Assembly: GCF_003351905.1 (NCBI RefSeq)
Contig: NZ_CP022339.1
Span: 120,001-152,000, forward strand
DNA from: Candidatus Saccharimonadota bacterium
Lineage (GTDB): Bacteria; Bacteroidota; Bacteroidia; Cytophagales; Amoebophilaceae
DNA length: 32,000 nt
Direction of reading: 5' to 3'
Of this stretch, positions 23,988-27,167 are shown piece by piece. The notes under the pieces were generated by a model that was not told where the DNA came from, searched no databases, and saw only the letters and a program-made list of their open reading frames with translations. The position numbers and the translations under genes were made by a program. Position 1 is the first letter of the stretch. Every line of letters starts with the position of its first letter.

Positions 23988-26900
23988 CTACCCAAAGGGA
24001 CATAAACGGAAGGTACTACCCATATGGGTAACCTGATTGACAATGTAGGCTACATTACGTCCAAATCTACTTTCAATATAGGAGAGGGGCACCTTAGAAT
24101 CCTCAACTACATCATGCAATAGAGCAGCTATTACTACATCTGGGTCTTGTGTTTCCATTAATACAATGCGTGCTACAGCCATAGGATGGGTGTAAAAAGG
24201 GTCTCCTGATGCACGTTTTTGGTCACCATGGCATTTTTTTATAAATAAAATAGTATCCCTTACCAATGCCCTACTCAACGAAGTTGATTGAACCAAGAGG
24301 TCTTCGGTTTCTATTTCTTGTTGCAGAGATGCGGGTGTTTCCATGATCTTAAAGTTGGGATAAAAAGGTAATGTATTCATTACATTATCTCTAATCTTGC
24401 TGAGATGTAGTGGCAACACATATAAAAAGGTAATGGCCGCATCTTGTTTGGTAATGGTACCATAGCCATAATGGGCACTAACTATTTGCATAATCTCTTT
24501 TTCGTACAGATCAGTGATCGTATTAGGCACTATACCAGGCGCTTTTTCTAATAAATCGGTATACAAGGGGTCTATCCTAGGTTTGTCTATACCAGTAGTA
24601 ATTACAAAAGCTACAGCAGGTAATTCTTTAAAAAATTTTGTCTCGCTATCAACATTATATTTTATTTTTGTATCCATTATATGGATCCTTATAATCTCTT
24701 GATTTTCTAATAACTTATTTTTACTTTCTTCAATGAGGCGCATACTTGTGACCAGAAGGTATTCAATTTTTCCTGCATCACATTCTAAATATTTTTGTTG
24801 CGTAGTATGGTAGATGGCTACCTGAAATAGGATACCTGCTTTTTTAGAAGTAGTGGTAGCACGATCAAACATATTTTCTATATCGACCAAAACAACCTCT
24901 AATGTAATATGGTCTCGTTCATAATAGGCTAAATCTTGCAAAAACGTTCTATAACTATCTAAGCTATTGATGCTTCGCTTAACCATTTCTTTGTGGTGGC
25001 ATAACTCATCTGGTTTGGATAATAGTTGCTGTAAATCAGAACAAACCTTTTTTAATACATCTTCTTGATGATTACTTTTGGTCAGTATATCCAAATGGTG
25101 TTGGTATTGAATTTTTTTAATGGTGGCTTGATCCTTATAGAAAGCAAGTTCATGCCAATAGGCCAACTGGTTGGCCAGTAATGTTTTTACGGTTTTATGT
25201 AAGGAGATATACTTTATAAGTGCACACCAACAAACAACCAAACATAAACAGTTTGACCAAGACCCCCAAGTAGAAACAAGCAAAGCTAATGGTGGATAAG
25301 GAGCAATAAAGTAGGTCATCACAAAAGCAGCTAGCAGCATGAAAGATGCGGTAGGCATCGGTAGAAAATAAAAGCCTACTGCAATATTTAATAGGTATAT
25401 AATTGTAGGCACTATTGCATAACCACTTATGCTAAAGCACAGTGCCCCAGGCAGGAATAGCAAACAAAAGATACCGATTAACCAAATATAGTGCATCACT
25501 ACTTTATGGTGTGTCGTTTGGTGGCTATGCCATATGGGATAACATATAAAATATGTAGCCAAAATCATGCATGGGGAAAAATAATATACCCAACTCAATT
25601 TTTGATTATAACATAGGCTGATACAGAGGTAAATTTCAGAATAAAATCCGACTCTAAAAAAGTGAGCTGGTTTTTTTGGAAAAATATTTCGTATATACTC
25701 CTTCCAACAGAAGGTCCTAATTGCCTCCTTGTATGCTTTCCATTTACGTTTTCTAAGTTGTTTTTCTATTAATAGGGGTTCTTGATCTTGCGTACCTCCA
25801 GTATGCGGTAGTTTAGGAAGCAAATAGTGACTAATTACGAGCACAACAATGTTGGCCAACATACTTGGAAAGATAAAATTCCACTTTGCATGCAAATAGT
25901 ATTGCATGATAGTAGTTACTAAAATACCTGCACCCATGCCCAATAATACAGATAGTGTACGTGGAAAAAAGCCTATGATGGCTATGATAAATGGTATAGA
26001 TACCATAGAACTACAGAAGGTAAGCATATGATAAAATGTAGTGTACAATAAATCTGGGTAGCTAATAGCTATCCAAAGTCCTACTCCACCCACGCAAATA
26101 GTAGCCACTCTAGCCCATATCAATTTATGTTTTAATGATCCTGTCAAAGGTTCTATAATATCATGAACTAATGTAACCGTGCACATGTGTAAGTTAGAGT
26201 CAACGGTAGACATGATTAATGAGATAAGGGCTATGTACAATAATATGTTGAAGCCAGCCGGTGCATCATTTGTAATCATATGTAAAAATTGACTAGGCTT
26301 TAGATCAGGATGCATGTGTAGTAAACAGATACCTACTGTAGCTAGCAAAATTTTTACTACAGTAAAGATCAATGCAGCACGTGTAAAAACAGCTTTAGCT
26401 TGCCACACGCTAGCCGACATATAAATCCGCTGTATATTTGCAGAGACCATCCATGGAATTACATAGGTAGCTATATCCAAAACCATAGAAGAAATTTTAG
26501 GACGATTATTGATAACGATGTCTACCCAATCACTACGTATCCGATTCAGTAACAAATCAATAATATTAGTGGGGGGATGCAGTTTTTGGTAAGTTATCAC
26601 AAATAACATAGGCATAAACAGACCAAAAAATAGAATTTGCATAAAATCTGTAAAGGCTACAGAACGTGCGCCCCCAATGGTAGCGTACAACGTTACAAAA
26701 ATGGCGATGGTGATTGTAAACAAGGTGCCATCTATGTTAAAAAATAACCTTAATAGTTTATTTACTATACAAAATTCCAATACCACCAGTCCACCAGAAC
26801 GGATCACAAATGCAATAGCAGCAATATACCTGACTCCTTTTCCATAGACCGTTCCCATAGATTCTGCCATGGACAAATGACGCATAAATTTACCCATACG

Positions 26901-27167
26901 CATAGCCAAGGAACGACCTATAATGAGGTAGGCCACTCCAGCAAATAATACGAGTACCAACGGACGCGCAACTACAAAATCTAAGTTGTTGCTTAAAGAT
27001 CTTCCTCCTAATGCAGTAGCAATAACGGATGCTACCAAAATCCAAGTTCCAAATCGTTTGTGTCCTACAGCATAATCCGAAAAATCCTTCATTTTTCGAC
27101 CTGTTATTAACCCTATTGTCAATGTTAATATTAAAAACCCTATGACCCACCATACTTCAGCATGCAT
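23988..27167 (-). CDS. Multidomain membrane protein: SSS (sodium:solute symporter)-like domain + extra TM block + degenerate kinase-like region + truncated SpoT-type HD fragment
   Basis: aa 1-~470 hold about 12-13 TM helices with the SSS signature ATIGGARSVAFTDFMQ. aa ~500-670 hold about 6 more TM helices. aa ~675-930 are soluble with WHELAF (H-box-like) and a degenerate ATPase-like segment. aa 965-1059 match the N-terminal half of the RelA/SpoT hydrolase domain. Confidence 0.75.
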   Translation of the reverse strand: MHAEVWWVIGFLILTLTIGLITGRKMKDFSDYAVGHKRFGTWILVASVIATALGGRSLSNNLDFVVARPLVLVLFAGVAYLIIGRSLAMRMGKFMRHLSMAESMGTVYGKGVRYIAAIAFVIRSGGLVVLEFCIVNKLLRLFFNIDGTLFTITIAIFVTLYATIGGARSVAFTDFMQILFFGLFMPMLFVITYQKLHPPTNIIDLLLNRIRSDWVDIVINNRPKISSMVLDIATYVIPWMVSANIQRIYMSASVWQAKAVFTRAALIFTVVKILLATVGICLLHMHPDLKPSQFLHMITNDAPAGFNILLYIALISLIMSTVDSNLHMCTVTLVHDIIEPLTGSLKHKLIWARVATICVGGVGLWIAISYPDLLYTTFYHMLTFCSSMVSIPFIIAIIGFFPRTLSVLLGMGAGILVTTIMQYYLHAKWNFIFPSMLANIVVLVISHYLLPKLPHTGGTQDQEPLLIEKQLRKRKWKAYKEAIRTFCWKEYIRNIFPKKPAHFFRVGFYSEIYLCISLCYNQKLSWVYYFSPCMILATYFICYPIWHSHQTTHHKVVMHYIWLIGIFCLLFLPGALCFSISGYAIVPTIIYLLNIAVGFYFLPMPTASFMLLAAFVMTYFIAPYPPLALLVSTWGSWSNCLCLVVCWCALIKYISLHKTVKTLLANQLAYWHELAFYKDQATIKKIQYQHHLDILTKSNHQEDVLKKVCSDLQQLLSKPDELCHHKEMVKRSINSLDSYRTFLQDLAYYERDHITLEVVLVDIENMFDRATTTSKKAGILFQVAIYHTTQQKYLECDAGKIEYLLVTSMRLIEESKNKLLENQEIIRIHIMDTKIKYNVDSETKFFKELPAVAFVITTGIDKPRIDPLYTDLLEKAPGIVPNTITDLYEKEIMQIVSAHYGYGTITKQDAAITFLYVLPLHLSKIRDNVMNTLPFYPNFKIMETPASLQQEIETEDLLVQSTSLSRALVRDTILFIKKCHGDQKRASGDPFYTHPMAVARIVLMETQDPDVVIAALLHDVVEDSKVPLSYIESRFGRNVAYIVNQVTHMGSTFRLCPFG
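23991..24275 (-). other. SpoT/RelA-type HD (ppGpp hydrolase) domain fragment, C-terminally truncated
   Basis: KKCHGDQKRASGDPFYTHPMAVARIVLMETQDPDVVIAALLHDVVEDSKVPLSYIESRFGRNVAYIVNQVTH parallels E. coli SpoT aa ~30-115 (HEGQTRSSGEPYITHPVAVA...AALLHDVIEDT...FGKSVAELVEGVS). The ORF stops before the LADR-HNMRT region. Confidence 0.7.

Follow-up and report, generated by a model that had tools for sequence, protein, structure and literature searches.

Can a single bacterial protein join a nutrient transporter to the removal of the alarmone (p)ppGpp, or is such a join a scar left by genome reduction? The question is raised by a 1059-aa open reading frame (ORF; 23988..27167, minus strand, ATG start) in a 32,000-nucleotide stretch of contig NZ_CP022339.1, hereafter the window, where it lies between mfd (27554..30799, minus strand) and the RNase R gene rnr (21768..23897, minus strand). 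The sequence of its product is identical to that of AXI23949.1 / WP_114909704.1, a protein encoded on a 1.10-Mb contig of cSfur, the Cardinium endosymbiont of Sogatella furcifera, and annotated either as "HD domain protein" or as "sodium:solute symporter family protein". A first-pass annotation made from the sequence alone, whose coordinates for the ORF were borne out, had described a sodium:solute symporter (SSS)-like N-terminus, an extra transmembrane (TM) block, a degenerate kinase-like core and a fragment of a SpoT-type hydrolase, and had proposed either solute-to-(p)ppGpp coupling or a fusion scar.

We conclude with moderate confidence that the cSfur protein belongs to a large Amoebophilaceae family of four-module inner-membrane proteins, for which a transporter-to-hydrolase coupling is proposed, and that it is a copy in which the HD module has been disabled. 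The protein itself has five parts: the SSS domain, the six-TM block, a DHp/CA kinase fold, a linker, and the N-terminal half of an HD_4 domain (Table 1).

Modules of the cSfur protein and its relatives

The protein database search returned a 94%-identical orthologue from Cardinium metagenome-assembled genomes (MAGs; P0001), and relatives of 1128-1185 aa with precomputed SSF and HD_4 annotations from Cardinium, Amoebophilaceae and metagenome assemblies. In more distant proteins of ~927 aa, one of them labelled Rickettsiaceae, SSF is combined with HisKA and HATPase_c. Beyond the orthologue cluster the nearest full-length relative is P0002 (40% identity); it sits on marine metagenome contigs (L085/L086 in ENA; one TARA ocean sample), adjoining polA on L085, and this source extends the family to uncultured and possibly marine relatives.

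The SSS assignment was supported from two sides. TIGR00813 (NCBIfam) matched with a low score (E 6.8e-10; 38.6 bits against a cut-off of 184) yet end to end, over model positions 1-409 of 411, and a profile built from 69 family members matched solved SLC5/SSS transporters at E values from 4e-47 to 1e-22, including CHT1 (4e-47), vSGLT (4e-39) and SiaT (6e-37). In the Pfam scan the window protein gave no SSF match, and 10 of 12 relatives did. The domain contains GGARSVAFTDFMQ (D174) and MSTVDS (S320/T321/D323/S324). Aligned with SiaT, the invariant residues S320/T321/D323/S324 fall on S342/S343/S345/S346 and D174 on D182, which in the SiaT structure belong to the Na2 and Na3 sites. Seven positions (G165, G166, T173, D174, Q177, S320 and T321), which make up a GG...TD..Q motif and the Ser/Thr pair of the Na2 site, are invariant or nearly so in the family. 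Because the Na+-site residues align with those of SiaT, a Na+-dependent conformational cycle has likely been retained.

A full-length AlphaFold2 (AF2) model computed from the 69-sequence alignment (mean predicted local distance difference test, pLDDT, 84.6; predicted TM-score 0.77) placed ~13 helices in residues 3-449, followed by a basic amphipathic helix at 463-484 and a stretch of low pLDDT at 486-494. The connector follows a motif conserved in the family, HYLLPK.P.TGWVGIKD, which is degenerate in the window protein (PHTGGTQDQ). The second block of about six TM helices proposed by the first-pass annotation was recovered between residues 501 and 655, with helices at 501-519, 525-547, 552-580, 585-601, 604-621 and 637-655, and hhalign located a homologous block in true SSS-histidine kinase relatives. 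Since ~13 plus six TM helices bring the C-terminus into the cytoplasm, the kinase-like and HD parts are predicted to be cytoplasmic.

A kinase-like origin of the core was evident in both sequence and predicted structure. When the family was aligned with true SSS-HisKA-HATPase_c proteins by hhalign, the probability was 100% (E 3.5e-119) over 891 columns, a span that runs from the SSS domain through the second TM block and takes in the DHp/CA region. For the intact orthologue, an AF2 model of the cytoplasmic part (pLDDT 78.6) consists of a long hairpin of helices, then an alpha/beta domain, then a C-terminal domain that is again helical, and in the full-length model the alpha/beta fold lies at 759-919. 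Foldseek searches of PDB matched the DHp-CA units of HK853, RetS, CckA and ZraS (E ~3e-7, ~245 columns), and the family profile reached ZraS by sequence (E 1.7e-7). No HisKA, HATPase_c, STAC or PAS match was obtained in 12 members at E values up to 0.1, where Pfam reported only SSF, HD_4 and HD.

Column profiles of 62 full-length family members showed how far the core has degenerated. The phospho-acceptor His column is occupied by K (10), N (8), Q (5), R (5), E (5) and T (4), and by S in the window protein; an alternative hhalign register puts H691 in this column, but most relatives have N or D at the position of H691. The Mg-ATP-binding Asn of the N-box is replaced by Y, A, L or S, the Asp of the G1 box by Thr with deletion of "GIGIP" in 60-61 of the 62, and the G2 box is unconserved. 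An Asp before the N-box and an H-x-G near the end of the CA domain, AH(Y/G)G, are all that the family has kept. Because the His, N, G1 and G2 motifs have been lost family-wide, the core is, by its sequence, a pseudokinase and catalytically dead. The segments in which the first-pass annotation had recognized a degenerate ATPase fold (IIRIHIMDT, AFVITTG and IMQIVSAHYGYG) do align with the CA strands, the G1 region and the terminal HGG. Its candidate H-box, WHELAF, did not hold up: it lies ~15-25 residues upstream of the phospho-acceptor column and is unconserved in relatives.

The C-terminus was correctly placed in the N-terminal half of the SpoT-type HD domain. Pfam found HD_4 alone in the window protein (E 4e-13), with residues 975-1050 covering profile positions 4-78 of 156, and the NCBIfam model spoT_relA matched at positions 5-79 of 687 (E 5.9e-22). 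This remnant carries R..SGDPFYTHP (as RASGDPFYTHP) and LLHDVVED. HD_4 was present in all 12 members scanned, the motifs R..SGEPY.HP, LLHD..ED and K..DR.HN..T are 85-96% conserved in the 62 full-length members, and P0001-P0010 and P0013 have a complete HD_4 including K.ADRLHN.RT. The relatives match spoT_relA at positions 3-164 of 687 and nothing further, and neither their domain annotations nor the Pfam scan of 12 members gave a match to the synthetase domain PF04607. By these profiles the family HD is a single hydrolase domain without synthetase, TGS or ACT. The cytoplasmic AF2 model of the intact orthologue matched Rel/SpoT hydrolase domains in Foldseek (E 4e-9, 30-35% identity), and the family profile matched RelSeq at 4.9e-55.

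Table 1. Parts of the 1059-aa ORF and of the adjoining deletion, with positions in the window
Feature	Residues	Position	Strand	Basis
SSS (SLC5-like) domain, ~13 TM	1-455	25803..27167	-	TIGR00813, family profile, AF2
Connector, cytoplasmic	456-498	25674..25802	-	family alignment, AF2
Second membrane block, six TM	499-656	25200..25673	-	AF2, hydropathy peaks, homology to true SSS-histidine kinases
DHp-like helical hairpin without conserved phospho-acceptor His	657-755	24903..25199	-	hhalign, MAFFT, Foldseek
CA-like (Bergerat-fold) pseudo-ATPase domain	756-922	24402..24902	-	column profiles, AF2, Foldseek
Linker (RDNVMNTLPFYPNFKIMETPAS)	923-944	24336..24401	-	family alignment, AF2 coil
RelA/SpoT-type HD_4, N-terminal half, ends TFR	945-1054	24006..24335	-	HD_4, spoT_relA, Rel/SpoT structures
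Deletion junction, 161 bp, out-of-frame		24005..24008	-	DNA alignment with L001 and L002; tblastn P0001 break at 24006
Frameshifted tail LCPFG and stop		23988..24005	-	ORF translation, alignment
Dead 3' remnant (YVPLGRSVGITQLTVKIQKMCTAILDGLHHSK*), other frame		23906..24010	-	tblastn P0001, sequence read, alignment

The 161-bp deletion and other damaged copies

In a DNA alignment of the window with two orthologous loci (L001 and L002), the cSfur gene had a clean gap of 161 bp (columns 212-372). The deletion is flanked by a 3-bp microhomology, CGT, so that its exact position is ambiguous within 24006-24008, and the window protein diverges from its orthologue after TFR. Since 161 is not divisible by three the frame shifts, and translation ends after LCPFG. 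The last 34 original codons are still readable in another frame as far as the original stop at 23906-23908, and tblastn with P0001 recovered residues 957-990 at 24010-23909 with 91% identity. The lost segment, KKKLTEEE...KLADRLHNIQT...HTLAF, is the second half of the HD fold, and with it went two residues of the ADRLHN motif, the Asp that binds Mn2+ and the Asn. As known from the RelSeq structure, the DRLHN motif supplies a Mn2+ ligand and substrate contacts. Because the second HD half with DRLHN has been deleted, the cSfur copy, judged by its sequence, cannot be an active hydrolase, and its annotation as an "HD domain protein" should not be taken to mean one. The HD "fragment" described by the first-pass annotation is thus the product of a 161-bp frameshifting deletion.

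That the ORF as it stands is a working enzyme coupling solute sensing to (p)ppGpp hydrolysis is scarcely credible. The first HD half does keep R..SGDPFYTHP and LLHDVVED, and purifying selection acts on the remainder of the ORF, which is intact, but the nearly invariant K..DRLHN..T is gone, about five helices of the HD fold are missing, and less than half of the HD_4 profile is left. Selection on the gene was estimated as dN/dS between the window and L001, which was 0.185 for the whole gene, with 0.096 for the SSS domain, 0.31 for the second TM block, 0.154 for the kinase-like core and 0.149 for the HD remnant. The neighbouring genes gave 0.196 (rnr) and 0.130 (mrp); a signal of relaxed selection was sought in this comparison and none was found, the gene being comparable to its neighbours. 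Because normal purifying selection has acted over most of the divergence, the deletion is, on these estimates, recent. The same locus offers a technical explanation, namely that the gap arose in assembly or gap closing and that the real cSfur protein is intact at ~1113 aa. The genome is a short-read assembly from host libraries, paralogues of the family could confuse assembly, and both flanks are otherwise colinear with intact orthologues. We nevertheless regard an artefact as improbable: the junction is clean and has the 3-bp microhomology typical of real deletions, cross-paralogue misassembly is unlikely when the closest other family member found is 40% identical, and the lesions of relatives show such damage to be common.

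Two such lesions were characterized. A paralogue in the complete Cardinium genome CP101107.1 (L083) is interrupted by an in-frame TAA (7970-7972) just where its HD domain begins; the stop codon replaces a Lys of the relatives (FIKKAHG to FI*KAHG, in the context IQFI*KAHG). It leaves a 990-aa SSS-pseudokinase ORF and a separate downstream HD ORF that is otherwise intact and is annotated by gene callers as an HD_4 ORF of 144-156 aa; a second assembly (L084) has the identical lesion. In the MAG GCA_036541165.1 (L087), a contraction of A7 to A6 at ~5975-5985, equivalent to ~25105-25115 of the window, breaks the orthologue at the mfd-X-rnr locus into pieces of 694 and 447 aa. The missing A may reflect genuine slippage, in which case slippage during transcription might restore the frame, or else an error in the MAG sequence. 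Separate sensor and spoT genes with a stop between them, the arrangement in relatives that the first-pass annotation had set against a fusion, were in this sense seen (as the TAA and the 1-bp frameshift), but they are derived lesions of a fused gene, and the downstream piece in the stop-split Cardinium paralogue is an HD-only domain and no intact spoT. The independent and repeated loss of the hydrolase end in Cardinium strains provides a natural series on when this output is dispensable.

These lesions also bear on whether the whole cSfur ORF is already a pseudogene, the deletion being the first step in the decay of a gene that is unneeded in the Cardinium clade and yields no useful product. 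We hold this to be possible but doubtful. Disrupting lesions were found in 2 of the three or four strains sampled at the mfd-X-rnr locus, a nonsense codon occurs in the paralogue of another Cardinium, and Cardinium genomes are reported to contain many SSS/HD gene fragments (PMC12039267). The 3.2 kb reading frame, however, is still open, its dN/dS equals that of housekeeping neighbours, HD-less full-length variants exist elsewhere, and HD-less SSS paralogues are numerous and all expressed in cEper1 (PMC5698495). Most likely, the cSfur copy persists as an HD-less SSS-pseudokinase membrane protein that may still be a transporter and is heading towards pseudogenisation.

Some further observations concern the surroundings of the gene. 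The mechanically called RNase R ORF begins with GTG at 23945, which gives it a 5' extension (23897-23945, minus strand) that shares sequence with the dead 3' remnant left by the SSS-HD gene; to judge by 709-aa orthologues and the alignment, it truly starts with the ATG at 23897 (MQASHPPN). In the MAG locus L001 an insertion sequence with an rve integrase (5814-6902) lies between rnr and mrp, and the window is without it. At its left end the window carries two minus-strand ORFs, one for a transposase of the IS256/Mutator family (436-1674) and one for an ankyrin-repeat protein (1707-2666). A 480-aa ORF at 12787-14229 (plus strand) encodes ankyrin repeats followed by a eukaryote-type C2H2 zinc-finger array (zf-C2H2, E 6e-21) and is a candidate eukaryote-like effector of a bacterial symbiont.

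Breadth, origin and possible mechanism of the family

A HMMER search with a profile of the cytoplasmic part was run against 1.84 billion cluster representatives, with clusters defined at 50% identity. At least 150 clusters matched the pseudokinase and HD profile, down to E 1.6e-49 and most of them across both the kinase-like and the HD parts; among the matches listed, at least 59 clusters are 1080-1245 aa long and the remainder mostly look like fragments. The first-pass annotation had asked whether the full architecture recurs in other taxa, and it does. With this many matching clusters the fusion is, to judge by the profile matches, an old and diversified architecture and no accident of the cSfur genome. 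The proposal of a fusion scar created by genome reduction does not apply to the fusion, which is ancestral and widespread; in spirit it fits the truncation.

The taxonomic spread of the fusion rests on the source names of the relatives and on the literature. A contig scan with the cytoplasmic profile gave almost only generic RelA/SpoT loci, the informative ones being L003 (Amoebophilaceae) and L024 (Rickettsiaceae). A second protein search with this profile was dominated by long RelA/SpoT homologues (RSHs) and added fragments such as P0032; P0029 and P0030 proved to be unrelated long RSHs. The Rickettsiaceae MAG contig L024 carries a standalone small alarmone hydrolase (SAH) of 193 aa (2726-3307, plus strand) tail-to-tail with a 997-aa gene (3296-6289, minus strand), the two overlapping by 12 bp. 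The 997-aa product has the SSS domain, the six-TM block and a pseudokinase of the family type (AHYG and IRPK motifs) without an HD domain, and the SAH, at 39% identity, stands no nearer than do many long RSHs. Beside this pair lies an ORF (291-1529) for a reverse transcriptase of the group II intron type. The dead kinase thus exists without an HD domain, which is consistent with kinase loss having preceded the fusion. Proteins of the type named SLC5sbd+HK have proliferated in Rickettsiales and been laterally transferred to Amoebophilus and Cardinium (PMC5615194), and RAGE elements carry stringent-response hydrolase, synthetase and histidine-kinase genes together (PMC4316617).

We propose that in intact members hydrolysis of (p)ppGpp is probably governed by the binding or transport of a solute, with no phosphotransfer involved. 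When a host-derived solute is bound or carried together with Na+, the membrane modules would shift in conformation; the dimeric DHp-like helices and then the pseudo-CA scaffold would relay this shift to the HD domain, and alarmone hydrolysis would thereby be turned on or off. Nutrient availability could in this way lead directly to (p)ppGpp removal with no phosphorelay, and the transporter, the dimerising DHp-like hairpin and the C-terminal enzyme would together resemble a histidine kinase with a swapped output. Solute-to-(p)ppGpp coupling, as suggested by the first-pass annotation, is the best reading for the family, where HD_4 and its catalytic residues are complete, and fails for the cSfur ORF, where they are broken by the deletion.

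Several points weigh against this proposal. If Cardinium has no (p)ppGpp synthetase of any kind, the hydrolase would have no obvious endogenous substrate. Several representatives with full membrane and pseudokinase parts stop before the HD domain (P0011, P0107, P0110 and P0168, and the Rickettsiaceae 997-aa protein), so the HD domain is dispensable in some lineages. Tight co-evolution of sensor and output is not evident: among family representatives P0031-P0178, pairwise identities in the membrane and cytoplasmic halves were weakly correlated (rho 0.22-0.31, compared with rho = 0.70 within the membrane half), and some pairs were reversed, with 30% identity in SSS and 75% in HD for P0057/P0066 and 50% in SSS and 40% in HD for P0097/P0119. 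Such pairs hint at module exchange or recombination among paralogues. Finally, with regard to the cSfur copy, its genome was built from Illumina host-genome libraries, and an assembly artefact at the deletion is a possibility.

A rival reading is that the HD domain of the intact family is not a regulated (p)ppGpp hydrolase. It might act on another substrate, (p)ppApp or, as reported for Mesh1, NADPH, or it might partner, as an immunity protein or a kind of antitoxin, the alarmone synthetase toxins on Rickettsiales-type mobile elements, with the SSS domain simply a transporter. Such a role would fit the gene combinations on RAGE elements, the standalone SAH next to an SSS-pseudokinase gene in the Rickettsiaceae MAG, the partly independent histories of the modules and the neutralisation of toxic small alarmone synthetases by SAHs (PMC7229694). 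We consider it unlikely, given that the HD profile is far closer to long Rel/SpoT hydrolases (~190 bits) than to Mesh1 or other SAHs (~80 bits), that a conserved DHp/CA scaffold links the HD domain covalently in at least 59 clusters, which argues for a regulated output, and that PADLOC gave no match beyond one to DruC at chance level (E 0.003). A defence-system reading was accordingly rejected.

Returning to the coupling proposal, a bolder form of it can be put forward tentatively. The family may be a hitherto unrecognised class of one-component signalling enzymes of the membrane, namely transporter-gated alarmone hydrolases in which a dead kinase has been reused as transmission module between a Na+/solute transporter and a SpoT-type hydrolase, the 14-19 paralogues per Amoebophilus genome each being tuned to a different host metabolite and the membrane and output modules being reshuffled among them. 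If this were true, host nutrients could directly cause intracellular symbionts to bring down their (p)ppGpp.

Relation to known systems

Alarmone hydrolases are usually found within ribosome-associated long Rel/SpoT proteins or as small soluble proteins, and to our knowledge no direct route from a nutrient transporter to the shut-off of the stringent response has been described. If the proposal is right, a hydrolase held in the membrane and controlled by a nutrient transporter by way of a dead kinase would be such a route, and it would operate in bacteria that live inside eukaryotic cells.

The first-pass annotation had compared the protein with CbrA. In kinases of the CbrA/CrbS type the SLC5 domain leads into STAC and PAS domains, and the HisKA/HATPase_c pair behind them is active. 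The analogy stands loosely, in that an SSS-like N-terminal domain in a signalling protein suggests transport-coupled sensing, and it goes no further: no STAC, PAS or active kinase was detected (0 of 12 members), there is an additional six-TM block, the kinase is dead, and the output is an enzyme instead of phosphotransfer. Long Rel/SpoT proteins have an HD domain that is structurally superposable with that of the family; they also have synthetase, TGS, helical, ZFD and ACT/RRM domains, which the family is without, and they are regulated through the ribosome or acyl carrier protein, whereas in the family the membrane modules would take this part. In RetS-like unorthodox kinases, as in the family, a DHp-CA fold occurs without canonical autophosphorylation, and RetS was among the top fold matches. 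RetS heterodimerises with another kinase, whereas the fold in our family joins a transporter to a fused enzyme and its ATP lid has been deleted.

The SLC5sbd+HK proteins of Rickettsiales, whose histidine kinase is BaeS-like (Driscoll et al. 2017, PMC5615194), are homologous to the family over the SSS domain, the six-TM block, DHp and CA, and like the family they belong to obligate intracellular bacteria, have proliferated and have undergone lateral transfer. In them HisKA/HATPase_c retains its H, N, G1 and G2 motifs, and the protein stops behind the CA domain, at ~927 aa; the Cardinium-type family, in contrast, has lost the kinase motifs and carries a C-terminal HD_4. For Amoebophilus asiaticus, 14 rickSpo hydrolases and one full Rel have been reported, with an expansion also in Rickettsiales (Atkinson et al. 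2011, PMC3153485). These SAHs are HD-only RelA/SpoT homologues with conserved catalytic motifs, as in the fusion family; they were described as small single-domain proteins, whereas in the fusion the HD domain forms the output, at the C-terminus of a ~1150-aa membrane protein, and the words symporter and transmembrane are absent from PMC3153485. An orthogroup labelled "spoT ... / sodium glucose cotransporter" has 18 members in Amoebophilus and 7, 3 and 2 in three Cardinium strains (Brown et al., PMC6232779), and "19 sodium/solute symporters" of Amoebophilus and 12 of cEper1 showed strong, stage-specific expression (PMC5698495, PMC8831229). We infer that the rickSpo proteins, this orthogroup and the symporter sets are largely one gene family; two puzzling gene-family expansions in Amoebophilus and Cardinium, one of them the "rickSpo expansion", would then probably concern the same genes.

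Our literature searches found no paper that analyses the fusion or notes the dead kinase, and the family was mentioned in passing only. Database annotations already show its architecture. The still uncharacterised family brings together two known kinds of protein, SSS-coupled sensors and small alarmone hydrolases.

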